Assembly (NCBI GenBank): GCA_028712225.1
Contig: JAQTQN010000002.1
Coordinates: forward strand, 746-64,745
DNA: 64,000 bases
Source: Methylobacter sp.
GTDB lineage: Bacteria > Pseudomonadota > Gammaproteobacteria > Methylococcales > Methylomonadaceae
Reading direction: 5' to 3'
Position numbers and translations under genes: made by a program
Shown: positions 43,452 through 63,627 of the stretch, one piece after another
Layout of the letters: the number at the start of each line of letters is the position of its first letter
How positions within the stretch are numbered: the stretch's first letter is position 1
The notes under the pieces: generated by a model
What the model was told of the DNA's origin: nothing
Seen by the model: the letters and a program-made list of their open reading frames with translations, nothing else
Database searches by the model: none

Positions 43452-44489
43452 TCAAGCAGATAAAGCTTGACCTACCTCGGCAAGGATTTTGTTTATCTGT
43501 TCAGTGTTGGCATAGCCGCTATTTAAGCATCGTGTTTTTCCGGCAGCAGCTATTTTTTTTCTGACATTATCATGTGTCAGATAAAACCGAAGCTTATCTT
43601 TAAGTTCATCATGACTTCCGAAAAACTCAGCTTCCTTCCCTTCTTCAAATAGTGAAAGATGATCATCGGTTCGTTCGGCAAGTAAGAATGTACCCAGTGC
43701 AGGAATTTCAAAGCTTCGGGTGGTGGTCGTTTCCGGAATCCATTTGCTTAAAAGTCCAAGCCCTATTTTGGTGTAACTAAGGGCATGGAGATAATTTTGC
43801 CCCCAAACACCGTTGCCACAAACATAAGGTCTAGCCCATGTATTATTTTTTGCATAACGCGGCCACTTTGGTCCCCAAATTTTCAACAGCCCCGCTTTAT
43901 CACTCGCTGCTTTCAGGGTTTCGGCATAGTGGTTTTCATAATGTCCAACAAAACAAACATCGGAGCGCCAATCGGTATTCTCTTGAGTAATAGCTTTATA
44001 AGTTGTGAATTTCAAATCAAATCCTTGTAATACTAACAATACTTTTTTGGCGCCAAGATGATGGTACATTTCGAGTTCAAATGGCTTCGTTGTAACCAGC
44101 CAATCGTATATTGGGATGCAGCGTTCAAAATAACGTGACTGGTGAAAAACAAGTGCAGGATCCGGCGTGTAATGCAGTGCAGGACAATGCAAACGTCGTT
44201 TTAGTAAATCCAGGGTTTCAGGATACAGCCAAACACCTTTATCTACCCAAATAAGATCAATACTCCCCACAGACCAAGAATGATTGATCAGTGCTTTATT
44301 AAAGCTCCAGACACTAGGGCCCCAATTGATTCGATGTGCAAGCGAGCAAATAATTCGGCTCCAATTATGCGGTAACGTCCAAAATGTAGTGTCAAAAGGT
44401 ACGAGTTTATGTCCGAGACTTGCCAAAGCAATCATACGCTGACGACAGGTTCCTCCCTCCCAAAGTGGACCGATATATAAAATTCTCAT
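43452..44489 (-). CDS. CgeB-like / Glyco_trans_1_2-type glycosyltransferase
   Basis: The C-terminal segment TRSFEIPALGTFLLAERTDDHLSLFEEGKEAEFF..ELKDKL.YL resembles the DUF3880/CgeB family. Confidence 0.55.
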   Translation of the reverse strand: MRILYIGPLWEGGTCRQRMIALASLGHKLVPFDTTFWTLPHNWSRIICSLAHRINWGPSVWSFNKALINHSWSVGSIDLIWVDKGVWLYPETLDLLKRRLHCPALHYTPDPALVFHQSRYFERCIPIYDWLVTTKPFELEMYHHLGAKKVLLVLQGFDLKFTTYKAITQENTDWRSDVCFVGHYENHYAETLKAASDKAGLLKIWGPKWPRYAKNNTWARPYVCGNGVWGQNYLHALSYTKIGLGLLSKWIPETTTTRSFEIPALGTFLLAERTDDHLSLFEEGKEAEFFGSHDELKDKLRFYLTHDNVRKKIAAAGKTRCLNSGYANTEQINKILAEVGQALSA

Positions 44490-45253
44490 CAGCGTGGCTT
44501 ACAAGCCGACATAAGAAAAACGCGGGTAAGTACCCGACTGCCTGCACTGCCGGTTTCAATCAAGTTCCAAGCCAATAGGTGCAACCGAATCAGTTGCCAG
44601 AGCCCGAATCGAATACTGGAAAACAAGGAATACCCGTAAGGCGGCGGATTGCACTCGCGTGCTTCTAATATAATGAAACCAGTGATTTTCAAAAGACGTC
44701 CCAAGGCATTCGGGGTCAAACCAATTTCGTGTGTAAAGTCGCTGTATCTATGCTGAGCCCCCCAAGGTCCTTCGGCATTTGGGGTTTGTAAAATTAATCG
44801 TCCACCTGGCTTTAAGGCAGCGTAGGCAGTATCCAGGAAACACAGTAATTCATCTTTGTAAAAGTGTTCGATGATGTCAAAACCTGTAATTAAATCAAAT
44901 TGATTAACGTGTGTTTCCAAGTATTTAATGACATTGGCTTCGGTAACATTAGGTGTGATTTGGCGCGAGAGGGCTACTTGATCAGGGCTAATATCAACCC
45001 CTTCAATGTTTTGATAACCTTGGTCTTTAAAAAAATGTAAGAGCGCTCCACGTCCACAGGCAAGATCAACAATACGGGCCGTTTTGATGTCTGGCAACCA
45101 ATTACGTAAATAATAGCTATAGGCAGAACCCCAGCGTAATGATGAGGCATAATCAAAAGTTTCTGAAGTATCTTGGAAGTTTTTACCGTAGTTGGCATAA
45201 ATACGCTGACGGTAGGTTGTAGAAAATTGACTGAATTTGGTTTTATTTGTCAT
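44489..45253 (-). CDS. Class I SAM-dependent methyltransferase
   Basis: Motif I IVDLACGRGALL and post-I/II motifs (GVDIS, LKPGGRLIL). Confidence 0.85.
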   Translation of the reverse strand: MTNKTKFSQFSTTYRQRIYANYGKNFQDTSETFDYASSLRWGSAYSYYLRNWLPDIKTARIVDLACGRGALLHFFKDQGYQNIEGVDISPDQVALSRQITPNVTEANVIKYLETHVNQFDLITGFDIIEHFYKDELLCFLDTAYAALKPGGRLILQTPNAEGPWGAQHRYSDFTHEIGLTPNALGRLLKITGFIILEARECNPPPYGYSLFSSIRFGLWQLIRLHLLAWNLIETGSAGSRVLTRVFLMSACKPR

Positions 45254-45267
45254 TTAGTTAATTTTTT

Positions 45268-46527
45268 TCATTTTATGCCGGCGGATAACCAGGGCTTGGC
45301 GAAGCAGTAAGCGACTATTAGCTGCACACCATAATAAATAGATACGGCAATAGTAGCGCCCCACAAGCCCCAAAGGTAAATGCAGACTAAGCCACTTGCT
45401 ATGGCAATTAATGTTCCAGTTCCTTCAATTACCAATACGCTTACTGTTGCGCCATTGGCATAACAAACTCTGTTTGCGACATGGGATAACACTAACAGAG
45501 AATATCCGCCTGCTATCCAGGGCAAGAGATAAGATACATTACGATATTTTTCCCCCAACATCACTTTAGCAATCCACGAATGGCTCAACCAGGTAACGTT
45601 AATAATCATGAATGCGCCAATTATAATTACAAGTACCCATTTGCCTAAATAGCGATGAGCGAGTTTTTGATTATCTTCTGCTAGTGCCTGTTGATAGACT
45701 GGCCGAATGACTGTTTCAACAATATTGCCAAAGATAAGCACTGGACGACTGGCGAGCCCGTATATTGCCACATAAAATCCAACGTCAGCAGGCGATAGTA
45801 ATGCAGCAATCATATAGCGATCAGCCATACCAGAAGCCCAGCCGAGAATTCCTAGCGGCAAAAGCGGTAATGTATATTGCCAAAAGCGCTTATGAAGTAT
45901 CTGTTGGCTTAAATCAGGATTAATCAGCGGATCCCTCTGTACAGCTTGACGCATAATCACGCAGGTTCCTAAAGAGGCCAAAAAGTAACCGATTAGCACT
46001 GAATTAATAGTAGCGTCTAGATGAACCGCTAACCAATAAGCTAATAATGGCCGACTCCATGACTCAGCGACAGCCCAGATGCTAAAAGCAAGGTGGGATC
46101 TAATTGCATTTAAGTATGCACAGTTTTGAATGCGAATAATTTCGACGGTAACTATGCCAAGTAATATAGCCATAGTCGATACTGTGCCCCAACCAACGTT
46201 TAGTGCTTCAACTACGCCAATTAATAGTATTGGAAAAAACCATAAGATAAGTTTACATAATTGCTGCCGAGCCACAGCTTTAACCATCGCCCCTTGTCCG
46301 AGTTGCGCATACTCGGGATAGTAACGTAATAGCGCTTGCATGGTCGGATTAGCAATTCCTGTAGATATAAGAGCAACAGCGCCCATCCATAAACTTATTT
46401 CCCCAAAAACAGTGGGGGATAGTATGTCTGTTAATAAACGAATCCCAGTTAATTGCCCTAGCGCCGATAAACCTTGCAATCCGCCAATTAAAACGCCATC
46501 AGATAATAGTGATCTTTTTTTGATCAT
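45268..46527 (-). CDS. wzx: Wzx-type oligosaccharide flippase (MOP superfamily)
   Basis: 419 aa with about 12 TM segments and the N-terminal pattern of Polysacc_synt proteins. It is the first gene of the O-antigen block. Confidence 0.7.
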   Translation of the reverse strand: MIKKRSLLSDGVLIGGLQGLSALGQLTGIRLLTDILSPTVFGEISLWMGAVALISTGIANPTMQALLRYYPEYAQLGQGAMVKAVARQQLCKLILWFFPILLIGVVEALNVGWGTVSTMAILLGIVTVEIIRIQNCAYLNAIRSHLAFSIWAVAESWSRPLLAYWLAVHLDATINSVLIGYFLASLGTCVIMRQAVQRDPLINPDLSQQILHKRFWQYTLPLLPLGILGWASGMADRYMIAALLSPADVGFYVAIYGLASRPVLIFGNIVETVIRPVYQQALAEDNQKLAHRYLGKWVLVIIIGAFMIINVTWLSHSWIAKVMLGEKYRNVSYLLPWIAGGYSLLVLSHVANRVCYANGATVSVLVIEGTGTLIAIASGLVCIYLWGLWGATIAVSIYYGVQLIVAYCFAKPWLSAGIK

Positions 46528-46576: not shown

Positions 46577-47770
46577 TTAGCTTTTATTAGGCCGTAACCG
46601 TGTATAAAAAAATACCAGCGGTCGCATTATGTAATGCAATATAAATAGCTTATCAGGTAGCGCTGATAGCAGTTTAATATCGTCTATATTTGGCGTAAAT
46701 ATTCCCATTAAGAGTAAGCGTTTATCAGCCCATCCCTGAGGAATTAATCTGGCATAAAAATACACGTCAAACCGAAAGCGCTTAGTATTTATTTTTTCTG
46801 ACAGATTAAGAAAATTGAGTGATTTATTAACCAAGATTCGCGTAACTTTATCCCGATGATAAAAATTAAGAATGGGAGCTGGTACTGGTGTTTCATACAA
46901 AGTATTAGCCAATATCCAGCTAACGGTTAACGACCTCATTGAGTTAAGCTCATTAGCTAAGAGCACCAAACTATCAATATTTAGCTGATCATTGGCTTTT
47001 AAATATTCAATATAAAGAACAATATCCAAGAGCCATTTAAGTCGATGGTAAAAAGTCTGGGTGCCGTGCCAACAAAGATAAATAATCTCATAATTACTTT
47101 TATCTTCTAAAGAAGAGCTGTTAAATAATTGCCGAGTATAATTTTTAGAAAGGGCGGTTGAATACTGGCATGGCCTTACATGTAGTTCGAGCGGTACACC
47201 TGTTTTACGGGTGTAAATGACGTCTTTGTTTGACTGTAAATAAAGATGTTGCTGATTTTTAGACAATTGATCGTAAACGTTACATTCATAACCTAAAGTC
47301 ATGATTTTTTTATTCGCTTTATTTATTTGATAAGCCGGGATAATCAAATCAATATCTTTTGAATACCGTTTTACAATATCCCCATACAGCTTTTTAGCTA
47401 AAGGAATGCCCTTTAATGTTCGAACGGGTATATCTGCGACTTTAAAAAGATGAAGTAACTCACCATAGGTTGTAAAACGTTGATAGCTTTGACGGATATT
47501 TTTCTGGTATTTTTTATGTAAATACGCGTGCAGATCGTCGGGGAATAAAGTAACAAAATGGTTTTTACTATTTAAATACACGCATGGACATATATGATGC
47601 TGCTCTAAGAGCTCTCTAAAATAGGTGACATCAATAATACTAATCAGTTCGGAGACTTGCTCGATTTGGGCCGCTGTCATTGTTGGCCGGCTTAAAAGAA
47701 CTGCGAGTTTTAACTCTGAACGGGCCAATTTAGCAAGGTGGTTCATTTCATACTTTTTGTGTGGCACCAT
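46577..47770 (-). CDS. Uncharacterised-nucleotidyltransferase family protein (NTP_transf_5-like)
   Basis: LKGIPLAKKLYGDIVKRYSKDIDLIIP...LGYE matches the signature LKG..L....Y.....R...DiDlL of this family, which is often linked to PqqD/HprK-like peptide-modification loci. Confidence 0.7.
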   Translation of the reverse strand: MVPHKKYEMNHLAKLARSELKLAVLLSRPTMTAAQIEQVSELISIIDVTYFRELLEQHHICPCVYLNSKNHFVTLFPDDLHAYLHKKYQKNIRQSYQRFTTYGELLHLFKVADIPVRTLKGIPLAKKLYGDIVKRYSKDIDLIIPAYQINKANKKIMTLGYECNVYDQLSKNQQHLYLQSNKDVIYTRKTGVPLELHVRPCQYSTALSKNYTRQLFNSSSLEDKSNYEIIYLCWHGTQTFYHRLKWLLDIVLYIEYLKANDQLNIDSLVLLANELNSMRSLTVSWILANTLYETPVPAPILNFYHRDKVTRILVNKSLNFLNLSEKINTKRFRFDVYFYARLIPQGWADKRLLLMGIFTPNIDDIKLLSALPDKLFILHYIMRPLVFFYTRLRPNKS

Positions 47771-49985: not shown

Positions 49986-50465
49986 ATGCTTAAAGATATT
50001 CAATTCAGACCTATTACAAAAGACGATATGGACTTTCTACACAAGGTCTATGCCAGTACCCGCGAGCTTGAATTGCAGCAAACTGATTGGAACGATGAGC
50101 AGAAAAAAGCCTTTGTCGATATGCAGTTTAATGCGCAGCATACGTTTTATATGCAAAATTATCATGACGCGACCTTTGAGGTTATTTCCTACAAGGGCGC
50201 TCCAGCGGGAAGGCTTTATCTTCTAAAGAGCCCCAAAGAACTGCTGATTGTCGACATTACCCTTTTGCCCCGATTCTGTGGTCAGGGTATCGGAAGCGAA
50301 ATTCTTGGTCAACTGATGCGGGAAGCAGCGGAAACCGATAGGTCACTTTTGATTCACGTCGAAAAGTTCAACCCCGCCCTTAAGCTCTACACTCGGCTCG
50401 GATTTAAGGTTGTTGAGGATAAGGATGTCTATTTCTACATGGAATGGAAAAAGGAAAAGGGGTAA
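49986..50465 (+). CDS. GNAT-family N-acetyltransferase
   Basis: Acetyl-CoA motif A RFCGQGIGSEILGQL and the C-terminal YTRLGFK. Confidence 0.8.
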   Translation: MLKDIQFRPITKDDMDFLHKVYASTRELELQQTDWNDEQKKAFVDMQFNAQHTFYMQNYHDATFEVISYKGAPAGRLYLLKSPKELLIVDITLLPRFCGQGIGSEILGQLMREAAETDRSLLIHVEKFNPALKLYTRLGFKVVEDKDVYFYMEWKKEKG

Positions 50466-50473
50466 ACGTTTGA

Positions 50474-51217
50474 ATGGATACGCCGGATAAGCCATGTTCT
50501 GATAGCGCCGTTATTAATCCCTCGCTTTCCTTGCTGGCAAAATGGATCAACCCGTTACATTTTCAAATGGAGAATCTTCAAGCCAGCCATAAACGGCTTG
50601 AATCCGATCCTCTTTCTCTTCTTGTCCTCGATGACTTCCTGCTGCCTAGCGTTGCCAATAGAGTAGCCAATTTTCTTCGGGAAGAGGCAGAGTATAAACG
50701 GGAATATCAAAGCCGCAGCAAGGAGTTTCTCAATCAAGACGCATGGGAAGAACTGCCGGAAGCGGAGCGCCTTTATCGGTTCCTGGTTATCCATAGGGTT
50801 AAACCTTCGTGCCTGATGAGCAAAAATTGGCTGACCTTTCTTGCTTTCAACGATATATTCAAGCAGCCTCCCTGTTTTTCTTTCATGGAATCGGTTTCCG
50901 GAATGCAATTTTGCGATGCCAGGATTGCCGGAATACATGGGCACGAAGCCGAAGATATGATCACATGGCACGCTGACGCAGGACGTAACAAGGATTTTTG
51001 CGGGACCTTGTACCTTGCCCCCGATTGGAACGAAAGCGACGGCGGTGAACTGGAAATTAAACGCGAAAGTGAGGAAAATTACCTGATAACGCCCACCTTT
51101 AACCGTCTGGTGCTTTTCAAAACCGATAAACAAACCGTACACCGGGTAAGGCCTCATGCACCCTCAGCAGTGGATAAAGTGCGGTATTCCTATGTGTTCT
51201 GGTATAGAAAAGTTTAA
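50474..51217 (+). CDS. 2OG-Fe(II) oxygenase (proline-hydroxylase-like)
   Basis: WHADAG...GGELEI...NRLVLF...HRV pattern (HxD...H...R). Confidence 0.7.
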   Translation: MDTPDKPCSDSAVINPSLSLLAKWINPLHFQMENLQASHKRLESDPLSLLVLDDFLLPSVANRVANFLREEAEYKREYQSRSKEFLNQDAWEELPEAERLYRFLVIHRVKPSCLMSKNWLTFLAFNDIFKQPPCFSFMESVSGMQFCDARIAGIHGHEAEDMITWHADAGRNKDFCGTLYLAPDWNESDGGELEIKRESEENYLITPTFNRLVLFKTDKQTVHRVRPHAPSAVDKVRYSYVFWYRKV

Positions 51218-51368: not shown

Positions 51369-52613
<1,245 letters not shown>

Positions 52614-53634: not shown

Positions 53635-53916
53635 ATGACACAAATTTCACTTACCTCAACTGTTTGCCAGTCTGAAGGCCACGTATCGGCTGTACTCGAT
53701 GAAGAAGTTGTCCTGATGAGCATTGAGAAAGGGGCTTATTTTGGTTTGAACAGAGTCCTGAGCTGTATCTGGCAAATACTGGAGACTCCCACCACCGTGT
53801 CTCAACTATGCGCAATCCTTCAGGATGAATACGACGTGGAGCCGGAAGTTTGTAAACGCGATGTATTCGAAGCCCTGGAAAAACTGGCGGAAAACAAGCT
53901 AATAACTGTATATTGA
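53635..53916 (+). CDS. PqqD-family peptide chaperone (lasso B1 / RRE)
   Basis: 93 aa. EVVLMSIEKGAYFGLNRVLSCIWQILETPTTVSQLCAILQDEYDVEPEVCKRDVFEALEKLAENKLI is a textbook PqqD/RRE pattern. Confidence 0.85.
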   Translation: MTQISLTSTVCQSEGHVSAVLDEEVVLMSIEKGAYFGLNRVLSCIWQILETPTTVSQLCAILQDEYDVEPEVCKRDVFEALEKLAENKLITVY

Positions 53917-53942: not shown

Positions 53943-54833
53943 ATGTACAGATACAGCATCTATGGTTTGACGGTCTCTTCGGAACTGGAATGTCCCCTAT
54001 TACTTTCGGCAAAGGAACAAGTCGATATAACAATTCGTTTCGGGGCGATACCTTCCTGCTGCATTTCCGCCGACACGCACAAAGGGGCCAACTTTATCGG
54101 CAACGGTAAATTGCTGCTGGATATTCAGGAAATCGCAAAATATCTGATCAGTGATGGCAATGCAGTTCTCATTGAACCTTATCCCAATGCCAAGGAAGAA
54201 ATGATACGGCTTTTCCTGTTGGGCAGCGCACTGGGAATTCTTCTCCACCAGCGCGACATACTTCCTCTGCACGGTTGCGGGATCGTGTATAACGACAAAG
54301 CCATCCTGTTCCTCGGTGAAACGGGAATCGGCAAATCGACTCTTGCGGAAACTTTTCGCAGAAAAGGCTATAAGCTTTTAACAGACGATGTTTCAGCGCT
54401 TTGCTTTTCAAATGATGCTTCCGTCAAGGTCTTTCCGGCCTATCCTAAGATAAACTTGATGGAAGAAACGGCAAAAAACTTCAATATTCCGATAGAAGGC
54501 CTCCCTGAGGCACATCCGCAAAAAAGGAAATATTCTATACCGGTAGGTGAGAGCTTTTGCCCCGATCCAAAACCCTTGTCCCGGATTTATATTCTGCACC
54601 AGACCGATCAGAAAAGCATTCGCCTTGAAGTACCTCAAAAAATAGCCGCCATTCCCTTTCTGACACACAACACCTACCGGAAGCAGGTAATCGAGAAAAT
54701 GGGGCTTCTACAGCGGCACATCGATCAATGCGCCCATCTTGCAGATAACTACCCGGTCAGGTTGCTCTCTCGACCCGACGACTTATCCCGTCTCCCGGAA
54801 TTGGCTGATTGCCTGGAAAGTGATTTTCTATGA
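53943..54833 (+). CDS. HprK-related serine kinase (paralog 1)
   Basis: ILPLHGCGIVYNDKAILFLGETGIGKSTLAETFRRKGYKLLTDDV is equivalent to the HPr-kinase C-terminal domain with a P-loop. Confidence 0.8.
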   Translation: MYRYSIYGLTVSSELECPLLLSAKEQVDITIRFGAIPSCCISADTHKGANFIGNGKLLLDIQEIAKYLISDGNAVLIEPYPNAKEEMIRLFLLGSALGILLHQRDILPLHGCGIVYNDKAILFLGETGIGKSTLAETFRRKGYKLLTDDVSALCFSNDASVKVFPAYPKINLMEETAKNFNIPIEGLPEAHPQKRKYSIPVGESFCPDPKPLSRIYILHQTDQKSIRLEVPQKIAAIPFLTHNTYRKQVIEKMGLLQRHIDQCAHLADNYPVRLLSRPDDLSRLPELADCLESDFL

Positions 54834-55693
54834 AGGGTAACATTATCTGGATAGCTTCTTACCCAAAATCCGGCAACACCTGGTTCAGGATATTTCTTTC
54901 CTGCTTGCTGGAGGAAACTGCTTCAGAACCGGACATTAATCAAATAGGTACCGACGGGATTGCCAGTTCGAGAATGCTCTTCGAGCAATGCACTGGTCTT
55001 GATTCTGCCAATCTCACGCCTAAGGAAATCGCAGCTCTTCGCCCTGCTGTCTATAACTATTTATCGGCGACACTTCAAAATGATCTCAAGATCAAGGTGC
55101 ATGATGCCTATCAAATCCTTCTCAACGGCATCCCGCTGTTTCCGGTTACAGCCACAAAAGCCGCTTGTTATCTTATTCGCAACCCCCTCGATATTGCAGC
55201 TTCTTATGCGCATCATTGTGGTGACAGCCTAGATGAGACCATAGACAAAATGAATAATTCCGACTGGAGTCTCGGCAAACAAACGCTGAACGCCACAGCC
55301 CAACTTCCTCATTTTCTTGGAAGTTGGTGCCACCATGTAAAAAGCTGGATGGAATCCACGCATTTTCCGGTCTGTTTGCTTCGTTATGAAGACATGCACC
55401 TGCAACCTCTGGAAACCTTTAGCAAAGCGGTGGTCGCCATAGGCATCGAAAAATCCCCGGAGGAAATTACTAGAGCGATTAAAGCCTCTTCCTTTGAAAA
55501 ACTCAAAAAACAGGAACAGGAGTCCGGCTTCCGGGAACGCCCCCATACTTCAAGTTTTTTTTTTCGTTCGGGCAAGATCGGCTCCTGGCGCGACAGCCTT
55601 ACCGAGAAGCAGGCCAGCCTGATTATCGAAAACCATACTGAAACAATGAGGCAATACGGTTATCTCGATAGCCGGGGAAACCCGACTTTTTAA
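54830..55693 (+). CDS. Sulfotransferase-domain protein (cytosolic ST-like)
   Basis: The 5'-PSB motif YPKSGNTW, a 3'-PB-like region (LLRYEDM) and a C-terminal FFRSGKIGSWRD. 4-nt overlap with the upstream kinase gene. Confidence 0.85.
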   Translation: MKGNIIWIASYPKSGNTWFRIFLSCLLEETASEPDINQIGTDGIASSRMLFEQCTGLDSANLTPKEIAALRPAVYNYLSATLQNDLKIKVHDAYQILLNGIPLFPVTATKAACYLIRNPLDIAASYAHHCGDSLDETIDKMNNSDWSLGKQTLNATAQLPHFLGSWCHHVKSWMESTHFPVCLLRYEDMHLQPLETFSKAVVAIGIEKSPEEITRAIKASSFEKLKKQEQESGFRERPHTSSFFFRSGKIGSWRDSLTEKQASLIIENHTETMRQYGYLDSRGNPTF

Positions 55694-55705: not shown

Positions 55706-56590
55706 ATGAATGTTTTGCTTTATGGGCTTTCCTGGTCGTTACCCTTTTTAACACCGTGTCTCCAGCTAACAGAAAAACCGGCAGAGATTACCGTCGTTTT
55801 GGGAGAGTTTAATGAGGACAACGTCTCCTGGAGTCATGTTGGAGTCTGTTACAAGGCCTCACCCGGCGCATACTTTTTGCTTGTCCCCGGAGTCGCACGT
55901 TTCCTGCTCACCAACGGGAATACAGTAATAATTGATGCACAAAAACATGTCTTGAAGGAAGAAATCCTGCATTTCCTTTTCAACCCCGTTGCCGGGGCGC
56001 TACTTATGCAGCGGGGAATTCTTCCCTTGCAGGCAAGCGCCGTCGAAAAAGACGGGAAAGCCGCTATCTTGCTGGGTGGTTCCGCCTCAGGGAAATCCCT
56101 GATAGCGGCAGGCCTGATGCAGCGAGGGTTCAAGGTAATAACGGATAATGTTTGCGCCGTGCATTCAGGAGAAAATCCGATGCTAAAAGCCGGATATCCC
56201 CATTTGCTCCTGTGGAAAAGGGCGTTACAGGAACTGGGTTACGATCCAACCGGACTTTGCAAATTTCGGCAAAACATAGAAAAATACCGCCTGCCTATCG
56301 CTAAAGACTGTTATGCCATTGAAGCGCCTATAGAAAGACTTTATCTTTTAGCCCATAGCAACGAGAACACCTATCCGGAAACCCGGATCACGGGGCGAAA
56401 TAAGTTCACTCTACTTTTGGACTGTGTTTACCATAACCCGCTCATCGAAGCATTCGGCATGCAGACAGAAATGTACCAGATCATAATTTCACTGGCGCAG
56501 CGGCTTCCGATGAAGAAGGTTGCCTCACCTATGTCCATCCAGAACGCACGGAAGTTCATAGACGCTTTTGCCAGTCGGTATCAGTCATGA
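55706..56590 (+). CDS. HprK-related kinase paralog 2 (divergent active-site context)
   Basis: ILPLQASAVEKDGKAAILLGGSASGKSLIAAGLMQRGFKVITDNV retains the P-loop, but His becomes Gln and DD becomes DN relative to paralog 1. Confidence 0.7.
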   Translation: MNVLLYGLSWSLPFLTPCLQLTEKPAEITVVLGEFNEDNVSWSHVGVCYKASPGAYFLLVPGVARFLLTNGNTVIIDAQKHVLKEEILHFLFNPVAGALLMQRGILPLQASAVEKDGKAAILLGGSASGKSLIAAGLMQRGFKVITDNVCAVHSGENPMLKAGYPHLLLWKRALQELGYDPTGLCKFRQNIEKYRLPIAKDCYAIEAPIERLYLLAHSNENTYPETRITGRNKFTLLLDCVYHNPLIEAFGMQTEMYQIIISLAQRLPMKKVASPMSIQNARKFIDAFASRYQS

Positions 56591-57822
56591 CCGCCAGACA
56601 AAAAATTCGCAAACGCTTTTCACTGTTATTGGGAAACTGTAACGTTTATTTCTGTCTGAAGCCGAAATCCCGGCAAAATCCAATCGAGAAACTTCGCACC
56701 GCAACCGACCACTATTTTCTTTATAACCAAGCTGCCGTGATTCGGATTCCGGTTAAAATGGTGGTATTTTTTTGTTGGCCGCTCATTGCCGTCAGGTTAG
56801 CCATTCGCCACTACGTTCTGTTTGGCACGGTTGTAAAGCTGGAATATGGCATCGGGATGTTTCAGCAGTTCACACAACTGCTTTCTCTGGCATGGTTAGA
56901 GTTTATTCATCCCCGCTATTACTATCAATACCGGCTCTTTGACAAAACGCGTATGCAAAAACGAAGTGCATACCTGTTTCATCGGAGGAACCAATCCCTC
57001 TTCATGGCATTAAATGGGTTCGTATCGGGTGAGCTGATCAACAACAAGGAAAAATTTGCAGAATTCTGTCTAAAAAACGATCTTCCTACACCGAAAACCC
57101 TCGCTCTCTTTGAAAATGGAAATATGGCAATCAAGGTGGCTGCCGAACTTTGGCAAAAAAAAGACATCGTCATAAAACCTATTAACGGTCATATGGGGAG
57201 GGATATTCAATTCGGTTATGCAGAAGGGAACGGAAGCTATCGATACCGGGGCAAAACTTCCACTGTTGAAGAACTCCTGCAACAAATCGCCCTTGATTCA
57301 GCAGGAGAACCTTTCCTCGCTCAAGAACGGCTCTACAACCACCCGGAACTTTATCCTCTGTCAAACGAATACTTGGCAAGTATCCGCATTGTTACTTTTC
57401 TGGGACAGGATAATGCACTGGCTTTTCTTGCGGCTTATATAGGGCTGCCTTATGACGCTATTACCGTTAGCAATGAAGGCAGGGATTTTCCTCTGGACTT
57501 GGCAACAGGGAAAATTCTTGCTCGCCCCCTGCACCCCATAATGCCCGATTACAAAAAGGAACTCACTGAGGCAAGCCAACTGGCGGTGGGTAATACGCTT
57601 CCCTACTGGCAACAGGCAAAAGAGCTGGTATGTAAAGCCCATCGCTTGATGCCGGATTACTTTTCCCTCGGTTGGGATATCGCCATCACCGCAAACGGCC
57701 CCGTTATACTGGAAACCAACATCGGTTGGGATACCGACTCGATACAATATTTCCACGACCTTCCCTTGGGCGATACGGAATTTGTTCGTTGCGCAGTGGC
57801 AAGACTAAATAGCTTGAAGTGA
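56587..57822 (+). CDS. ATP-grasp enzyme (sugar-transfer-associated / alpha-L-glutamate-ligase-related type)
   Basis: DIVIKPINGHMGRDI and LGWDIAITANGPVILETNIGWD resemble the ATPgrasp_ST family. 4-nt overlap with the upstream gene. Confidence 0.7.
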   Translation: MTARQKIRKRFSLLLGNCNVYFCLKPKSRQNPIEKLRTATDHYFLYNQAAVIRIPVKMVVFFCWPLIAVRLAIRHYVLFGTVVKLEYGIGMFQQFTQLLSLAWLEFIHPRYYYQYRLFDKTRMQKRSAYLFHRRNQSLFMALNGFVSGELINNKEKFAEFCLKNDLPTPKTLALFENGNMAIKVAAELWQKKDIVIKPINGHMGRDIQFGYAEGNGSYRYRGKTSTVEELLQQIALDSAGEPFLAQERLYNHPELYPLSNEYLASIRIVTFLGQDNALAFLAAYIGLPYDAITVSNEGRDFPLDLATGKILARPLHPIMPDYKKELTEASQLAVGNTLPYWQQAKELVCKAHRLMPDYFSLGWDIAITANGPVILETNIGWDTDSIQYFHDLPLGDTEFVRCAVARLNSLK

Positions 57823-57856: not shown

Positions 57857-59719
57857 ATGAGCGTTATTTACGGAATTATTCATAGCAAAGAAAAGCGGCT
57901 TGAAAAAACGGAAGCGGAAATTCTGCGCAAAAGCCTCGACTATGTTCGCTTCGACCGTGAAGGGATATGGCAAGAAGAAAACACCCATTTAGGCGTATTG
58001 CTGAGGCAACTGGTACAAAACGATGCGGAACAGGCACCTCTGTACGACCCGATTAGCGGCTTGACAATCTGTGCCGATGCCCGTCTCGATAATCGGGATG
58101 AATTGGCGGAAAAACTTGAAATATCCCAAGAAAAACGGCTCAACGTTCCCGACAGCCTCCTTATTCTGAGGGCATACCAGAAATGGGGCGTGAACTCGCC
58201 GGAACAGCTACTAGGGGACTTTGCCTACGCTATTTACGAGAAAAACAGCGGGAGGCTTTTTTGCGCACGGGATCACCTGGGTATCAGGCCATTTTATTAT
58301 TACTGGATCGACGGTACTTTCTGCTTCTGCACCTTACACCCCCCTCTTATGGCAGTCTGCCCCGTCTCTCCAACACCTAATGACGCCTACATCGTCGCCT
58401 CTTTTATCCGATCCTATATGGAACTGACCCACTCCGTGGCGAATGAAATCAATCGGCTGCCACCGGCGCATTCCTTGTCGATAGATAACACCGGTTTGAA
58501 GGTTCACCGGTATTGGGCGCCTGAGTCAAACACCGTCTTGCAGCTTGCCGGCGAAGCGGAACATGCACAAGCCATGCGGGAAGTTTTCACGCAAGCGGTT
58601 GCATGCCGAACCAGAACGGATTGCCGTGTCGGCACCCATTTAAGCAGCGGACTTGATTCCGGCTCAATCACGGTTCTGGTCGCACGGGAATTACGCAAGG
58701 AGGGGAAAAGCCCGCTCGCCTTCTCCTGGTCTCCCGAACCGGAACATACAACGAAGAAACTCGGAGACGAACGCGACCTAATTCGGGACGTATGCCGCCA
58801 GGAAGAACTCGAATGCCATTTCTTGGATCAGACGCCGGAGGATGGCTATCGAATTTTGCAGGAAGCCATGTCCAGTTGGGGAGATAATTTGTGGTTCCAC
58901 GAGATAAAACATCTTCAAACTGCGTTAAGAGAGAACTGCCGGGTCATGTTAAGCGGCTGGGGCGGGGATGAGTTAACTTCTTTTAATGGGGATAGGGTTT
59001 ATCTGGCAGACTTCCTCCGAAGAGAAGGCTTTCTTCGCCTACTCTCAGAGATGTTTTGTCTGAGAATGAACCGGCACGGCTCCTTTCGCAGCATGGCGAA
59101 AGAAATCCTGTATCCTTTTATCCCCGATTTTCTTTACTATCGCTTTTTCAATTTATCCGTCCTAAGGGATAGCGAATCGCTCATCAGCTCCCGTTTTGCG
59201 AAAGATCTCCTAATAGGCAGACGGAAACGAGGCCGTTGGCAGCAAAGGGATATAAAAAAACTCCAAATACAATGGCTGAATGCGGGCTATTTCAATCAAC
59301 GAATCGAACGCTGGGCGGAATTGGGCGAAATGCATGGCGTCAACTACCTCTACCCCGTTTTTGACAAACGGGTCGTTGAATTCGTACTTTCGCTTCCGAA
59401 CGAGCAACTCTGCAGAAAAGGCTGGCGGCGCTTTCTTTTCCGTAGCGCGATGGAAGGCATATTACCACCATCGGTGCAGTGGAATCGATCCAAGGCTGAA
59501 ATGGCCTACGGTGAACATACGAACGCCGTCTGCTCAGTTTACTTTGAAAAAATTCAGCAAAATATACAGGAAGCAATGAACCTGCCGTTGTTCCAGCGCT
59601 ATTTTAAGCCTGAAGCCGTTGAAAAAATGCTCGCATCATCAAATACGACTCTAAAGCTAGTCATTCTTAATAGAGTTCATGCCTATGTAAAGTTTCTTGA
59701 CCAATCGTTTTCTCGATAG
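57857..59719 (+). CDS. Asparagine-synthetase-like lasso peptide cyclase (C protein)
   Basis: 620 aa. The PP-loop SSGLDSGS is present. The N-terminus MSVIYG lacks the Cys2 nucleophile of true AsnB, as in McjC-type lactam synthetases. Confidence 0.85.
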   Translation: MSVIYGIIHSKEKRLEKTEAEILRKSLDYVRFDREGIWQEENTHLGVLLRQLVQNDAEQAPLYDPISGLTICADARLDNRDELAEKLEISQEKRLNVPDSLLILRAYQKWGVNSPEQLLGDFAYAIYEKNSGRLFCARDHLGIRPFYYYWIDGTFCFCTLHPPLMAVCPVSPTPNDAYIVASFIRSYMELTHSVANEINRLPPAHSLSIDNTGLKVHRYWAPESNTVLQLAGEAEHAQAMREVFTQAVACRTRTDCRVGTHLSSGLDSGSITVLVARELRKEGKSPLAFSWSPEPEHTTKKLGDERDLIRDVCRQEELECHFLDQTPEDGYRILQEAMSSWGDNLWFHEIKHLQTALRENCRVMLSGWGGDELTSFNGDRVYLADFLRREGFLRLLSEMFCLRMNRHGSFRSMAKEILYPFIPDFLYYRFFNLSVLRDSESLISSRFAKDLLIGRRKRGRWQQRDIKKLQIQWLNAGYFNQRIERWAELGEMHGVNYLYPVFDKRVVEFVLSLPNEQLCRKGWRRFLFRSAMEGILPPSVQWNRSKAEMAYGEHTNAVCSVYFEKIQQNIQEAMNLPLFQRYFKPEAVEKMLASSNTTLKLVILNRVHAYVKFLDQSFSR

Positions 59720-60081
59720 GGCGACGGTTACTTCTACTTTATCGATTATACGGAAGCCCCTCATACCCGCCGGGAAGCGGGTATCCAGTGCCATGGATGG
59801 TAAGCTAAATCCATCCCTGGAGCATGAATTCGCTTCGCGCTTTAGCGGGGTCCGGCAATCCCTGCCGAAATGATGATTCTGGGTATTGTGTGTTTATTAA
59901 ATATGACAAAGTAGAATTACCGGCTCACCATTGACGGTAGTCAGAAAGATTAAAAGCGCTCGATTTTCTTGATAACTGCCAGCCGAAAACTGAAATCTAT
60001 GTAGTTATTTTTCTAATTTATGATAGGCTTTTATCCATTAAATCTTCAGTCAACCATCAGAATTAGTAAAGGATAGCTGCA

Positions 60082-60231
60082 ATGACCTGCATAGATAATA
60101 ACAGCTTGGAAATTGGTGCAAAGAAAACTTGGGAAAAACCTGAAATTTCGGAATTAAAGACCAGTCTAACGGAAAAAGTAGGAGGGAAAACAGTAACATC
60201 AACTGAAGGCGCTTTTTCACGTCCCAGTTAA
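60082..60231 (+). CDS. Candidate lasso precursor peptide (49 aa), absent from the ORF track
   Basis: MTCIDNNSLEIGAKKTWEKPEISELKTSLTEKVGGKTVTSTEGAFSRPS. AAGGA lies 8 nt upstream of the ATG and a terminator hairpin lies downstream. The leader has the pattern W-x-x-P-x-I-x-x-L...T. Gly-Gly is followed 8/9 residues later by Glu. The core is Ser/Thr-rich and ends in Ser. Confidence 0.65.
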   Translation: MTCIDNNSLEIGAKKTWEKPEISELKTSLTEKVGGKTVTSTEGAFSRPS

Positions 60232-60305
60232 AAAACATCATTCGCGCTTGAAAGAAAGTCTTTCCAAAATCAGGGGCAATTTCATTCAAACGCAGATTCA
60301 CTTAC

Positions 60306-60335
60306 CCTGACCGATCTTTTGGTCGGGTTTTTCAT
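60306..60335 (+). terminator. Rho-independent terminator after the precursor ORF
   Basis: CCTGACC-gatctttt-GGTCGGG followed by TTTTTCATTTT. Confidence 0.6.
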
Positions 60336-60757
60336 TTTATCTTTCTTCAACTCGACGTTGACTTAATTGTCTTTATCGAAAGCTTGACTTTTCGTAGTGA
60401 TGTAACTGAATAGACGGGTGATTTCCGCTTGCTCAAATGCAGATCCGCTTGGTTAGCGGATCTGCATCGAACTTATCATGTGGCAAATAAACGACCTTTG
60501 CTTAAGGTTTACAGGCGTATCCGTTAGCCGATGTTGCACTGGGCTTTTAGGGTTTCATTGCAAAACGGGATTGTTCGAATATTCCTGATAGGTAGGCTGG
60601 CGGGAGAACTTCATAAGGCACCCGAGTACAAATGAATTGTACTCCAGTTCTATATCGACACGATACTCATAGCCATAGAGAAGAAGGGGAGACAACGGTA
60701 GCTAGCCAGCGTCAAACGAAGTGACATCACTCGGAAGAATTGCTCATGAAACGCCTG

Positions 60758-60790
60758 CAAAAATACGGCGGCCGGTATGACCGACCGCCG
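60758..60790 (-). terminator. Terminator after the tail-collar operon
   Basis: On the minus strand: CGGCGGTCGG-tcata-CCGGCCGCCG (one mismatch) followed by TATTTTTG. Confidence 0.55.
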
Positions 60791-60798
60791 CCAATGTT

Positions 60799-61329
60799 TC
60801 AATTACGAGAAGGGAACATGCCCTGAATGCAGATGCAGTGATTGACAACTAGAGAGGGTTGTATATTGCTATGCGGCTGGCTGCCCCCCGCCGGAGCCAA
60901 AGCATTTGACCCCATCGTTACCATATTGGATGAGACCGGATTTGGTTCGAAGCGTTTGTTTGCTTTGTCTCTTGATGGGTAAACCGTTGCAGAAGGTGTC
61001 CCCTGTGTACCAACCACATCATCTCCGTAAAGAGTATGGGTATGGCCCGGGATCTGAGTGAGGTTAAGTGGAACTGTTGTGTCGCCTCCGGTGGAAGCGA
61101 AATTCCGTGTGGTAAGCCCCGGGCCGGTACCGGAATGCATAGGCGTTACTCCCTGTAGGTTGGGCAGTAAGTAGGTTGTCTGTCCATTGCCGCCAAATGC
61201 GTTGCCTATAACGGCAAAAAGTGCCGTATTTTGTTGAACGTACATCGTTTGACCGTTACACCAAGCCCAATCCCTTGGGGCATAGGTGTAAGGCAATAAC
61301 CTGATTTCACCAAAAAATGCTTGTGACAT
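60799..61329 (-). CDS. Phage-tail-collar-domain protein (MdpB-like), paralog 3
   Basis: FGEIRLLPYTYAPRDWAWCNGQ...QNTALFAVIGNAFGGNG.TTYLLPNLQG and the C-terminal HSNIQPSL...QGMFPSRN. Confidence 0.85.
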   Translation of the reverse strand: MSQAFFGEIRLLPYTYAPRDWAWCNGQTMYVQQNTALFAVIGNAFGGNGQTTYLLPNLQGVTPMHSGTGPGLTTRNFASTGGDTTVPLNLTQIPGHTHTLYGDDVVGTQGTPSATVYPSRDKANKRFEPNPVSSNMVTMGSNALAPAGGSQPHSNIQPSLVVNHCICIQGMFPSRN

Positions 61330-61338
61330 AATTCCTCC

Positions 61339-61890
61339 TTAGTTTTGTGTCGGGAAAATACCCGTCGTGGCAATGATGTAATTAAGAGCTAAAAATGGTG
61401 CGACGTTCGTATGAGTGGCAACAGCTCCCAGAGTGCCGCCTCCCGCAGCGGAAACTGAAGACGACAGAAAGGGTTTTACCGCTGTTGTGTCTGTCGTATA
61501 GGAAAAGTCGTCAGTTCCACTCGCATCGGCGGCCAATGTGTTATTTTGGGGAGCCGTTGAATTGGCCTGCTGACTTGTCGCCTGTATAGGGTGATTATGA
61601 GCCGGCATTTGAGCTTCGGTTAAGGCCACCGTCTCTGTGCCTGTCGATAAGCCGACAGCCCAATTTACTGTACCGCCGCCGGAAGCGATCCCCGCTCCAA
61701 CCGGCACCCTTCCCCGCATGTCAGGAACTTTAAAGGTGGTTGATCCATCTCCGCCGTAGGTTGTTCCGATCAGAGCAAAAAGCGCCTCATACTCAGAGAT
61801 ATTGAGGGCTTGACCATTGCAAAAAACATATCCGACAGGTGCATACTGACCGGCAAAAATAGTGATTTGTCCTACATAAGGTTGAGACAT
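61339..61890 (-). CDS. Phage-tail-collar-domain protein (MdpB-like), paralog 2
   Basis: YVGQITIFAGQYAPVGYVFCNGQALNISEYEALFALIGTTYGGDGSTTFKVPDMRGRVPVG and the C-terminal HTNVAPFL...TGIFPTQN. Confidence 0.85.
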   Translation of the reverse strand: MSQPYVGQITIFAGQYAPVGYVFCNGQALNISEYEALFALIGTTYGGDGSTTFKVPDMRGRVPVGAGIASGGGTVNWAVGLSTGTETVALTEAQMPAHNHPIQATSQQANSTAPQNNTLAADASGTDDFSYTTDTTAVKPFLSSSVSAAGGGTLGAVATHTNVAPFLALNYIIATTGIFPTQN

Positions 61891-61899
61891 AATTCCTCC

Positions 61900-62415
61900 T
61901 CAGTTACGTGCTGGGAAAAAGCCTTGCAAGGCGATACAAAAGCCTATGCATAAGGACGGTTGGATGTTGGTATGAGCCTGGCTTCCGCCGCTGTTGCTAC
62001 AGGTTCCCGGATTTAGCGCGACATAAGTTCCGGTATTAATATAAGTCGATTCTTGTGATGCAGCAAAAACCACCGGCGCTGGAAATGCAAATGCTGTACC
62101 TAGAGTGCTGACGGCATTCATGGCGTGGGTATGTTGAGGCAGGTTTGTGTTGGCAAGTGTTACCGTATCACTACCGCCGACTGTACCTTGAATATAATTT
62201 TGCCCAGAATGAATCCCGGCATGAATCGGCATGCGCCCCCTAAAATCGGGCAAATTGAAGTTTGTCGTCCCGTTACCGCCAAACTGGACGCCAAGCAAGG
62301 CATAAAGCGCCTGATTTTGACTAATAACTAATGTCTGTCCTATACAGGAAGCCCAACCTTTCGGCGCCCAGTTAAAGCCGAACATCCGAATTTCTCCAAC
62401 AAATGGATCACTCAT
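61900..62415 (-). CDS. Phage-tail-collar-domain protein (MdpB-like), paralog 1
   Basis: FVGEIRMFGFNWAPKGWASCIGQTLVISQNQALYALLGVQFGGNGTTNFNLPDFRGRMPIH and the C-terminal HTNIQPSL...QGFFPARN. Confidence 0.85.
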   Translation of the reverse strand: MSDPFVGEIRMFGFNWAPKGWASCIGQTLVISQNQALYALLGVQFGGNGTTNFNLPDFRGRMPIHAGIHSGQNYIQGTVGGSDTVTLANTNLPQHTHAMNAVSTLGTAFAFPAPVVFAASQESTYINTGTYVALNPGTCSNSGGSQAHTNIQPSLCIGFCIALQGFFPARN

Positions 62416-62492
62416 ATATACTCCTTAGTTCATAAAAATTTACTTCATTAACGTTGAAGGTTATCGAAAAGGCCATAACAATTCTTTGCTTT

Positions 62493-62852
62493 TCAACTTC
62501 CGACTGCAACAGGTTTCACTGAGTAACAGGCTTGGTATTGGTAACCCGTTACTACTCCTTTATCGTTTCTTATGTCCCCAACAGGTACGATAAAGAACTC
62601 GTGGTCTCCCAGTTTTTCTTGTCTTGCCATGTAACAGCCCTGCGGCAGAAAAAATTCCGGCCCATGAAAAAGCAGATTAAAACTGACAAAGGGGCCGCAG
62701 GGAGTTTCTTTGCTGACCTCAACTAACGTAAGATCAACATTTTCGAATTCCGGCTCCTTACCGATGTTAGCTGGATCGAAGTCAGGAATAACGAAAGCAA
62801 AAGTCGTATTAACGAGGGGAGAAAATAGTGCGGCTGAGATAAGGTGTGTCAA
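62493..62852 (-). CDS. Small hypothetical protein heading the tail-collar operon
   Basis: 119-aa ORF with a GGAGGAAT Shine-Dalgarno sequence. No motif recognised with certainty. I recall similar small proteins preceding tail-collar triplets in other proteobacteria (unverified). Confidence 0.5.
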   Translation of the reverse strand: MTHLISAALFSPLVNTTFAFVIPDFDPANIGKEPEFENVDLTLVEVSKETPCGPFVSFNLLFHGPEFFLPQGCYMARQEKLGDHEFFIVPVGDIRNDKGVVTGYQYQACYSVKPVAVGS

Positions 62853-63108: not shown

Positions 63109-63627
63109 TCATTTGATTGTCGAACGTGCGGAGACAAAACAGCTTACCACGGTGAATTGATCGAAGCTGATACCCCCGGTGACTGGAACTCGACCGACGG
63201 CCACCCAGGCATGGGCTGCCAGCATTGCATCGTCGGCATTGCGATTGAGGCCGAAAAATAAATTGTGCGGAACGCCGTAAAGCCCCAGCAAAATCTTTGC
63301 GGTCAGGGCTTGAGGAAAGCAGTTCGATTTCCACGGTGTGTAATTTGCCGCCATCCGCACTACTCTTGATATGGATAAGGCTTTGGCCTCAGCGCGGGAA
63401 TCGGCGAGCGGCACCCAAGGGGCAATGCCCTCATGCACTCCAAGACGGAGCACCAAGCGCCTGAATGGAATTGTCAGTATGACGAAACGGCTTGCCCCCA
63501 GCAATAACCAGACGGGAAGAAACCATAATTTCTCAAACCAAGGCCTATAAATGAAACTCCGCCCTTTGCGGATAAGTGTCGAAAAGATCATCATGTGAGT
63601 GATTGATTGGCTATTCGGGACAGGCAT
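63109..63627 (-). CDS. Lasso peptide biosynthesis B2 protein (transglutaminase-like leader peptidase)
   Basis: SNCFPQALTAKILL (catalytic Cys) and AHAWVAVG (His) are the hallmark of B2 / McjB C-terminal domains. 172 aa. Confidence 0.85.
   Translation of the reverse strand: MPVPNSQSITHMMIFSTLIRKGRSFIYRPWFEKLWFLPVWLLLGASRFVILTIPFRRLVLRLGVHEGIAPWVPLADSRAEAKALSISRVVRMAANYTPWKSNCFPQALTAKILLGLYGVPHNLFFGLNRNADDAMLAAHAWVAVGRVPVTGGISFDQFTVVSCFVSARSTIK

Follow-up and report, generated by a model that had tools for sequence, protein, structure and literature searches.

Which gene of a heavily equipped lasso peptide cluster encodes its substrate, and which amine of that substrate would close the ring? 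Both questions are raised by a 64,000-nucleotide stretch of Methylobacter sp. DNA (contig JAQTQN010000002.1; hereafter the window). An earlier, sequence-only reading of this stretch had recognized the cluster and proposed an unannotated open reading frame (ORF) at 60082-60231, on the plus strand, as the likely lasso precursor gene. Our analysis indicates that this ORF very probably serves as the precursor (A) gene for a kinase-associated lasso cluster of the paeninodin-like kind, carried by a Methylococcales genome. Synteny next to the cyclase gene, purifying selection, a paeninodin-type leader and an invariant C-terminal Ser all support this assignment. The identification is solid yet expected, given that the cluster was already recognized; the interest lies in a natural series of spacers ahead of a conserved K-x5-E unit and in an uncharacterized set of tailoring genes.

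A conserved coding gene beside the cyclase

The ORF has 49 codons (its coordinates include the stop codon), and the ATG at 60082 is the first start past an in-frame stop. Its translation, read from the sequence, is MTCIDNNSLEIGAKKTWEKPEISELKTSLTEKVGGKTVTSTEGAFSRPS (49 amino acids, aa), followed by TAA at 60229-60231. The start codon, the stop codon and an AAGGA motif 8 nucleotides (nt) upstream are all present as the sequence-only reading had described them, and an AAAGGA box is kept across homologous loci, the remaining upstream DNA having diverged. The ORF was indeed missing from the list of ORFs available to that reading; it is not new to public data, where gene callers have already predicted the exact 49-aa peptide on six contigs, one of them an NCBI metagenome-assembled genome (MAG), and where a Sideroxydans homologue has been deposited under the label 'hypothetical protein'. 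An antisense ORF of 83 aa does exist (60050-60301). Its frame contains one to four stop codons in homologues and is not conserved, and we rejected it as a gene.

Searching 5.8 billion clustered proteins gave three relatives (65-82% identity); a profile search over 1.84 billion representatives yielded a further four, and a second profile search brought the running total to 15. With two precursors from outgroup loci, the set comprises 17 peptides (16 plus the window peptide). A profile built on the outgroup found nothing new. Among genome contigs of species representatives, a scan detected a Sideroxydans MAG alone, and an alignment-based metagenome scan gave two loci. The family is rare: the searched collections contain 17 sequences, and a single genome represents it among the species representatives. 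Its hosts are Methylococcales and Sideroxydans MAGs, and near-identical proteins of the window cluster have been deposited from Methylococcales and Methylobacter MAGs.

Seven other main-family loci lie on contigs that extend to the cyclase gene, and in all of them the precursor gene is directly 3' of it. These loci are L001 (from the Sideroxydans MAG, JAQTTU010000006.1), L006, L008, L014, L017, L020 and L021. L004 lies on a short contig from which the upstream cyclase gene has been cut off, and the two outgroup loci (L015 and L016) each carry two precursor genes, both 5' of the cyclase gene. A homologous small ORF was found in every syntenic cluster examined, the point on which the sequence-only reading had staked its proposal. 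DNA alignments of the loci show a conserved ORF between unalignable flanks, with differences mostly at third codon positions. For distant pairs, the Nei-Gojobori method gives synonymous differences (pS) of 0.61-1.03, which are saturated, versus non-synonymous differences (pN) of 0.17-0.46, and all other frames, antisense included, hit stop codons in some homologue. Because synonymous sites are saturated, pN is restrained and the other frames contain stops, these data establish that ORF 60082-60231 is a protein-coding gene under purifying selection.

The flanking DNA of L004 is 94% identical to that of the window. Residues 1-31 contain one non-synonymous and three synonymous differences, and residues 32-49 (60175-60228 versus L004 202-258) contain seven non-synonymous differences, two synonymous differences and one codon indel. 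The clustering of non-synonymous changes in residues 32-49 gives a one-sided Fisher P value of ~0.12 (calculated by hand). This pattern suggests that the core is diversifying after Thr30-Glu31, with counts too small for significance.

A six-frame scan of the 64-kb window for the motif [Y/W]xxPx[LIVFAY] followed by a lasso-like short tail returned this ORF only. Nor did a rival conserved small ORF, the other weak point foreseen at the outset, come to light, as no other ORF of the window has a lasso leader motif. The small ORF adjoining the B2 peptidase gene, considered as a precursor, was rejected for the same reason.

A paeninodin-type leader and a displaced ring register

Lasso leaders carry a motif, [Y/W]xxPx[L/V/I/F/A], that binds the RRE (recognition element) of protein B1, and in the crystal structure of the paeninodin-like PbaB1 with its leader the contacts are K-18, W-15, P-12 and L-10 (PMC13381572). 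The window peptide contains W17-E-K-P20-E-I22, with the Trp and the Pro invariant in the family; the full set of invariant residues in a 15-sequence alignment is W17, K19, P20, L25, L29, T30 and S49. The spacing of K14, W17, P20, I22 and T30 is exactly that of the PbaB1-PbaA numbering, and by this match Thr30 would be Thr(-2) and Glu31 would occupy position -1. An hhalign alignment of the family profile with a sequence that we take to be PadeA (it scores 57 bits on NF033524) contains no gaps. It places K14-G35 on K2-G23, Thr30-Glu31 on Thr18-Met19 and Lys32 on Ala20. The leader pattern KK.W..P.I..L....T, which the sequence-only reading had cited, is therefore real, since the gapless alignment and the PbaB1 numbering agree on it.

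In direct searches the window peptide gave no hit on NF033524 (lasso_PadeA_fam), even at E = 10, and BLASTP against PadeA gave no alignment. An outgroup peptide, P0014, reaches 26.6 bits on NF033524, just under the cutoff of 27, and matches PadeA by BLASTP at 7e-5. Because direct BLASTP of the window peptide gave no alignment, kinship with PadeA is visible only via the family profile and P0014. A search of the PDB with the family profile found nothing. Judged by these alignments, the leader is paeninodin-like although the peptide itself has no NCBIfam score, and the leader ties the gene to the kinase-associated lasso precursors of the paeninodin/pseudomycoidin class. The proposal of a kinase-associated, paeninodin-type precursor is also in keeping with the HPr-kinase-like genes in the cluster and with the C-terminal Ser.

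Downstream of the B1-binding motif, the conserved and variable elements alternate. Thirteen positions on from the Trp, 16 of 17 peptides have Thr and the remaining one has Ser, and the residue that follows is E, G, S or D. Then comes a spacer, which takes the forms none, G, GG, KVGG, KTGV, GNPS and AKGGA, and after it the K-x5-E unit and a short tail (Table 1). The last residue is Ser in all 17 peptides (Ser49 here), as expected of the kinase target. Six Ser/Thr residues had been put forward as acceptor sites for tailoring enzymes; among the relatives only Ser49 is invariant.

A cut after Thr30-Glu31 would yield the core KVGGKTVTSTEGAFSRPS, in which the sole acidic residue, Glu42, stands at position 11. 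Glu42 must be the isopeptide acceptor, because there is no other acidic residue after position -1. Natural lasso rings use acceptor positions 7-9 (PMC10368454, PMC6993621), and in paeninodin and pseudomycoidin the core starts directly after Thr-x, with Ala1 joined to Asp9 (PMC6993621). Counting from Thr(-2), different members of this family would have rings of 7, 8, 9, 10, 11 or 12 residues. If the core starts instead at Gly35 or Gly34, the Thr falls at -5 or -4. That the Thr is out of register with the ring had been noticed before and is borne out here, with one refinement: Thr30 sits exactly at the paeninodin -2 position, and it is the ring side that is displaced. On the alignment evidence, then, Thr30 is in register with the leader, and the ring side is shifted by the variable spacer.

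Which amine would close the ring

The cores first suggested for this peptide are those of a canonical lasso. The leader would be cut before Gly35 or Gly34, or trimmed to that point after a shifted cut, and the alpha-amine of the Gly would close a ring of 8 or 9 residues, respectively, on Glu42. On this view the spacer would belong to the leader, and Thr30 would be a binding residue rather than P2 (position -2). Gly, Ala and Ser are the usual position-1 residues of lasso cores, and one of these three directly precedes the invariant Lys in 12 of 13 main-family peptides. The ring would have 8 residues (9 in P0007), inside the known range. A Gly35 start would put Val33 at -2, a position at which P0013 carries Thr and at which Ile or Val is a documented exception in phosphorylated lasso peptides (PMC10368454). 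The difficulty is that the residue at this -2 position is V, T, G, N, E or S across relatives, leaving no conserved P2, whereas 16 of 17 peptides keep Thr30 at the same distance as the paeninodin -2 residue; moreover, position 1 of the P0013 core would be Val. We regard closure by Gly35 or Gly34 as plausible and give it the most weight of the options, though it is less likely than not.

A second possibility is that the invariant Lys36 itself forms the ring, either through its alpha-amine, which would require a cut or trimming just before it and would give a 7-membered ring, or through its epsilon-amine, which would leave KVGG as a free stub. The K-x5-E unit persists whatever the length of the spacer. 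In the outgroup, all four precursors have [T/S]-[E/D] directly followed by K-x5-E, so that a canonical Lys1-Glu7 ring can be drawn for four different sequences. Tails without bulky residues suit a tight 7-membered ring, as in the xanthomonins, and many tails of this family are of that kind (NTTTSVS, SGSVGAS). Closure by the epsilon-amine is also the sole model that explains at once why Thr and K-x5-E are fixed and why the spacer between them varies. However, we know of no precedent for either a Lys at position 1 or a lasso ring closed by an epsilon-amine, and P0008 and P0011 are equally canonical when read as Gly1-Glu8. The Lys may also be kept for activity or as the target of the co-conserved GNAT enzyme; GelT acetylates a key Lys in gelatinamin (PMC13178200). 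A ring formed by Lys36 is conceivable but rather unlikely overall, and each of its two versions, taken singly, is quite doubtful.

Strict adherence to Thr(-2) would place the cut after Glu31 and have the alpha-amine of Lys32 close an 11-membered ring on Glu42. Rings would then range from 7 to 12 residues across the family, with a bulky phospho-, glyco- or sulfo-group at Ser49 to stop the tail from slipping out, a role proposed for bulky C-terminal modifications in pseudomycoidin (PMC6993621). No other model keeps P2 conserved and at a constant distance from the WxxP motif; under the strict cut the 7-, 8- and 9-residue members are fully canonical, and the cluster of non-synonymous changes relative to L004 begins at residue 32, the first of the core. 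A ten-residue ring has been made in vitro by the fusilassin enzymes (PMC8498205). Yet no natural ring of more than 9 residues is known, and in studied systems a one-residue change of ring size sharply cuts yield (PMC13352647). The model also leaves unexplained why a Lys lies exactly six residues ahead of the Glu, and it would give near-identical clusters rings of different size, 11 residues in the window and 12 in L004. We therefore consider closure by Lys32 unlikely. Some other amine partner altogether is as doubtful as either version of the Lys36 ring.

Should the family ring prove non-canonical, whether as a ring of 11-12 residues held by a decorated Ser or as a two-tailed lasso closed by the epsilon-amine of Lys36 with a stub of 0-5 residues, the result would be a new lasso architecture, and the family would also supply the first assignable substrates for lasso-cluster sulfotransferases and an ATP-grasp enzyme. 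We rate this outcome as possible, though on the unlikely side.

Several observations weigh against assigning the ORF to the lasso pathway at all. The peptide matches no NCBIfam lasso-precursor model, even at E = 10, and Thr(-2) and an acceptor at positions 7-9 cannot both hold from one cut, although each can be satisfied alone. The gap between cyclase gene and ORF is 362 nt here, compared to roughly 70-120 nt in other loci, and no sigma-70-like promoter was found upstream on the plus strand. Finally, the B2 gene lies 2.9 kb away on the opposite strand, beyond three unrelated-looking Collar genes. Nevertheless, it is highly improbable that the ORF encodes a conserved small protein outside the lasso pathway, or arose by chance, with the true precursor elsewhere: the missing NCBIfam match and the unusual ring register would suit such a view, but purifying selection on the ORF, its fixed position next to the cyclase gene (3' in seven other main-family clusters, 5' in two outgroup clusters), its paeninodin-type leader and the lack of any alternative leader-bearing ORF in the window all speak against it.

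Cluster genes, proposed pathway and known systems

The assignment of the ORF as precursor gene is what would be expected of a small ORF by a lasso cyclase gene with B1 and B2 in the same cluster. The cyclase scores 368 bits against NF033535 (lasso cyclase), under the 525-bit cutoff, and the best solved-structure matches of B1 are the lasso chaperone 9x90_B (4e-12) and TbiB1 (1e-10). The B2 gene is kept in L001, L004 and L014. Two paralogous HPr-kinase-like genes with Walker A motifs are present, and an ATPgrasp_ST gene is placed between the second of them and the cyclase gene, as it also is in L001, L014, L017, L020 and L021. Single-sequence AlphaFold2 modeled the ATP-grasp enzyme with a mean predicted local distance difference test (pLDDT) score of only 37.6. 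A pair of genes for a GNAT acetyltransferase and a 2-oxoglutarate (2OG)-Fe(II) oxygenase adjoins B1 in L001, L014 and L020. Further upstream in the window are two more sulfotransferase-like genes, an Asp/Asn hydroxylase gene and polysaccharide genes, and the cluster has at least three sulfotransferase-like genes in total.

Table 1. Positions in the window of the candidate precursor gene, its predicted parts and the cluster genes
Feature	Position	Strand	Basis
Candidate 49-aa lasso precursor gene (A gene)	60082-60231	+	ORF, relatives, synteny, purifying selection
Shine-Dalgarno AAGGA	60069-60073	+	8 nt before ATG, read directly
K14-I22 (KKTWEKPEI), predicted B1/RRE-binding motif K(-18)xxW(-15)xxP(-12)xI(-10)	60121-60147	+	Family and PadeA alignment
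Thr30-Glu31, positions -2/-1, predicted B2 cleavage site by homology	60169-60174	+	Family table, PadeA alignment
K32-V33-G34-G35, variable spacer	60175-60186	+	0-5 residues, sequence varies across 17 peptides
K36-T-V-T-S-T-E42, conserved K-x5-E unit	60187-60207	+	16/17 peptides; K-x6-E in one
G43-S49 (GAFSRPS), 7-residue tail	60208-60228	+	Tail of 7 residues in 12/17 peptides
Intrinsic-terminator-like hairpin and T run	60306-60332	+	Terminator scan
NTP_transf_5	46577-47770	-	PF14907, 2e-36
GNAT acetyltransferase and 2OG-Fe(II) oxygenase pair	49986-51217	+	Pfam
B1 (PqqD-type RRE)	53635-53916	+	PF05402, NF033536
HPr-kinase-like kinase 1	53943-54833	+	Walker A GETGIGKST; weak Hpr_kinase_C and HprK_rel_A matches, sub-cutoff
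Sulfotransferase (Sulfotransfer_1)	54830-55693	+	Pfam, 2e-27
HPr-kinase-like kinase 2	55706-56590	+	Paralogue, 25% identical to kinase 1; Walker A; weak sub-cutoff family matches
ATP-grasp enzyme (ATPgrasp_ST), hydrophobic N-terminal region	56587-57822	+	PF14397, 6e-32
Lasso macrolactam cyclase (C), 620 aa	57857-59719	+	Pfam Asn_synthase, GATase_7
B2 leader peptidase	63109-63627	-	NF033537, 83 bits (cutoff 33); PF13471

From these genes we infer a pathway, in which the enzymatic steps and the lasso topology alike are predictions from sequence. B1 would bind the leader through K14xxW17xxP20xI22, and one or both HPr-kinase-like enzymes would phosphorylate Ser49 of the linear peptide. Lasso kinases act on the C-terminal Ser of the linear precursor (PMC9266682, PMC8498205), and HPr-kinase homologues sometimes polyphosphorylate this residue, with assistance from B1 (PMC9266682, PMC10368454). 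The nucleotidyltransferase, the sulfotransferases, the ATP-grasp enzyme, the GNAT enzyme and the oxygenases would add further decoration, such that Ser49 is phosphorylated and decorated prior to leader removal and ring closure. We take PF14907 (NTP_transf_5) to be the Pfam family of PsmN, and by this analogy the NTP_transf_5 enzyme probably decorates phospho-Ser. PsmN, itself called an uncharacterized nucleotidyltransferase, adds hexoses to phospho-Ser, and bulky C-terminal groups may keep the thread in place (PMC6993621). B2 would remove the leader; by leader homology the cut would fall after Thr30-Glu31, leaving the KVGG spacer ahead of K36-x5-E42. The cyclase would then join an amine to the side chain of Glu42, and the ring would hold the 7-residue tail GAFSRPS.

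Among known systems, the PadeA/paeninodin family (NF033524) of Bacillota is the closest match in the leader, with which the window peptide shares the register K(-18)xxW/Y(-15)xxP(-12)xL/I(-10)...T(-2). Paeninodin likewise ends in a Ser that is phosphorylated on the linear precursor by an HPr-kinase homologue, and its cluster likewise has split B1 and B2. It differs in that PadeA has Ala1-Asp9 straight after Thr-Met, whereas here KVGG intervenes and the Glu is at 11, and in that the present cluster has a proteobacterial host, two kinases, several sulfotransferases and an ATP-grasp enzyme. Pseudomycoidin (PsmA/PsmK/PsmN, from Bacillus pseudomycoides) resembles the window cluster in combining a kinase with a nucleotidyltransferase, and its C-terminal Ser carries (poly)phosphate and hexoses. 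Its Ala1-Asp9 ring has no spacer, its cluster is without the sulfotransferase and ATP-grasp set, and its cyclase works without a leader or peptidase.

Proteobacterial lasso clusters with an HPr-kinase homologue are represented by SyanA/SyanK of Sphingobium yanoikuyae and BsfA/BsfK of Bradymonas sediminis. These systems have Ile or Val at -2, and B1 aids both phosphorylation and cleavage. BsfA has YxxPxL at -17 to -12, a Gly1-Asp8 ring and phosphorylation on Ser3, unlike the window peptide; SyanA is likened here by description only. No ATP-grasp enzyme and no set of multiple sulfotransferases has been reported for either system.

Class V lasso peptides (lariocidin B, gelatinamin A) have a Lys near the start of the ring and a cluster acetyltransferase, as does the present system. 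In gelatinamin, Lys2 lies in an 8-membered ring, and Lys36 would match it if the core starts at Gly35. The class is defined by an isopeptide from Lys2 to the C-terminus, made via a clostripain-like transpeptidase, and no match to such a peptidase appeared among the cluster genes scanned against Pfam and NCBIfam. That the ATP-grasp enzyme makes a class V-like link is pure speculation. Linear polyphosphorylated peptides, finally, have the leader YxxPxVLxHQxIxFETxxS and an SpI-type signal peptidase, with no cyclase; the window cluster pairs a Trp-type leader with a cyclase and B2, and it showed no SpI-type peptidase.

With its candidate precursor assigned, a heavily equipped cluster (two kinases, at least three sulfotransferase-like genes, ATP-grasp, nucleotidyltransferase, GNAT and hydroxylases) gains a substrate. 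In lasso biosynthesis, no counterpart has been characterized for the second kinase, the sulfotransferases or the ATP-grasp enzyme. Sulfotransferases in lasso clusters were remarked on in 2014 and 2016, and our literature search found no paper on a sulfated lasso peptide. With the conserved Thr and K-x5-E set 0 to 5 residues apart in its various members, the family is a natural series that offers a direct probe of what determines cleavage site and ring size. It also widens the host range to uncultured, groundwater-type methanotroph and iron-oxidizer lineages; a literature search found no papers on lasso peptides of Methylococcales or Sideroxydans.

The outgroup clusters are set apart by a cyclase only 24% identical to that of the window and by having two precursor genes, one kinase and no ATP-grasp gene. 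The ATP-grasp gene is absent from the spacer-free clusters (L015 and L016) and present in all spacer-bearing ones, a single phylogenetic contrast to which we give no weight. Genes for the supply of the sulfate donor PAPS (3'-phosphoadenosine 5'-phosphosulfate) flank the outgroup cluster (L015 5561-9278; L016 5477-9194) and encode a CysN/APS (adenosine 5'-phosphosulfate)-kinase fusion, a CysD-like PAPS_reduct protein and TauE. Their presence beside the cluster argues that sulfation of these peptides is real.

The window cluster and that of L001 have the same gene order, with cyclases that are 62% identical. The cluster is shared by a gammaproteobacterial methanotroph lineage and a betaproteobacterial iron oxidizer, and this distribution implies horizontal transfer.

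Around the precursor gene, the terminator hairpin noted in the sequence-only reading was recovered by our scan (60306-60327, 9 pairs, 5 of them G-C, followed by TTTTT), and Rfam models matched nothing over 59600-60850. A 78-nt stretch containing this hairpin (60257-60334) is missing in L004, the closest relative and otherwise 94% identical. The long cyclase-precursor gap (59720-60081) is also 362 nt in L008. The extra ~250 nt carries a perfect hairpin, CATACCCGC-CGGGAA-GCGGGTATCCAG, at 59762-59788, which occurs as a single copy in the window, and an inserted element may account for this extra DNA.

Between the precursor and B2 genes (60799-62852, minus strand) lie three phage-tail-Collar (PF07484) genes in tandem and a DUF6916 gene. 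The same set occurs in L001 (11514-13533), L004 (732-2773), L014 (13688-15904), L020 (10267-12263) and L021 (6403-8418), that is, in six independent versions of the cluster; B2 is confirmed in four of these, and L020 and L021 end in a gene that was not searched. The Collar/DUF6916 genes look like a conserved part of the cluster. Frameshifted transposase fragments at 51918-52605, between the 2OG oxygenase gene and the sulfotransferase-like gene upstream of B1, are apparently the remnant of an insertion sequence inside the cluster. Polysaccharide genes abut the lasso cluster both in the window (43452-46527, minus strand; glycosyltransferase, methyltransferase and Wzx-like flippase) and in L014 (17872-20141; Wzy_C and Bac_transf), the same arrangement as that of paeninodin-like clusters inside capsule loci of Bacilli (PMC13381572).

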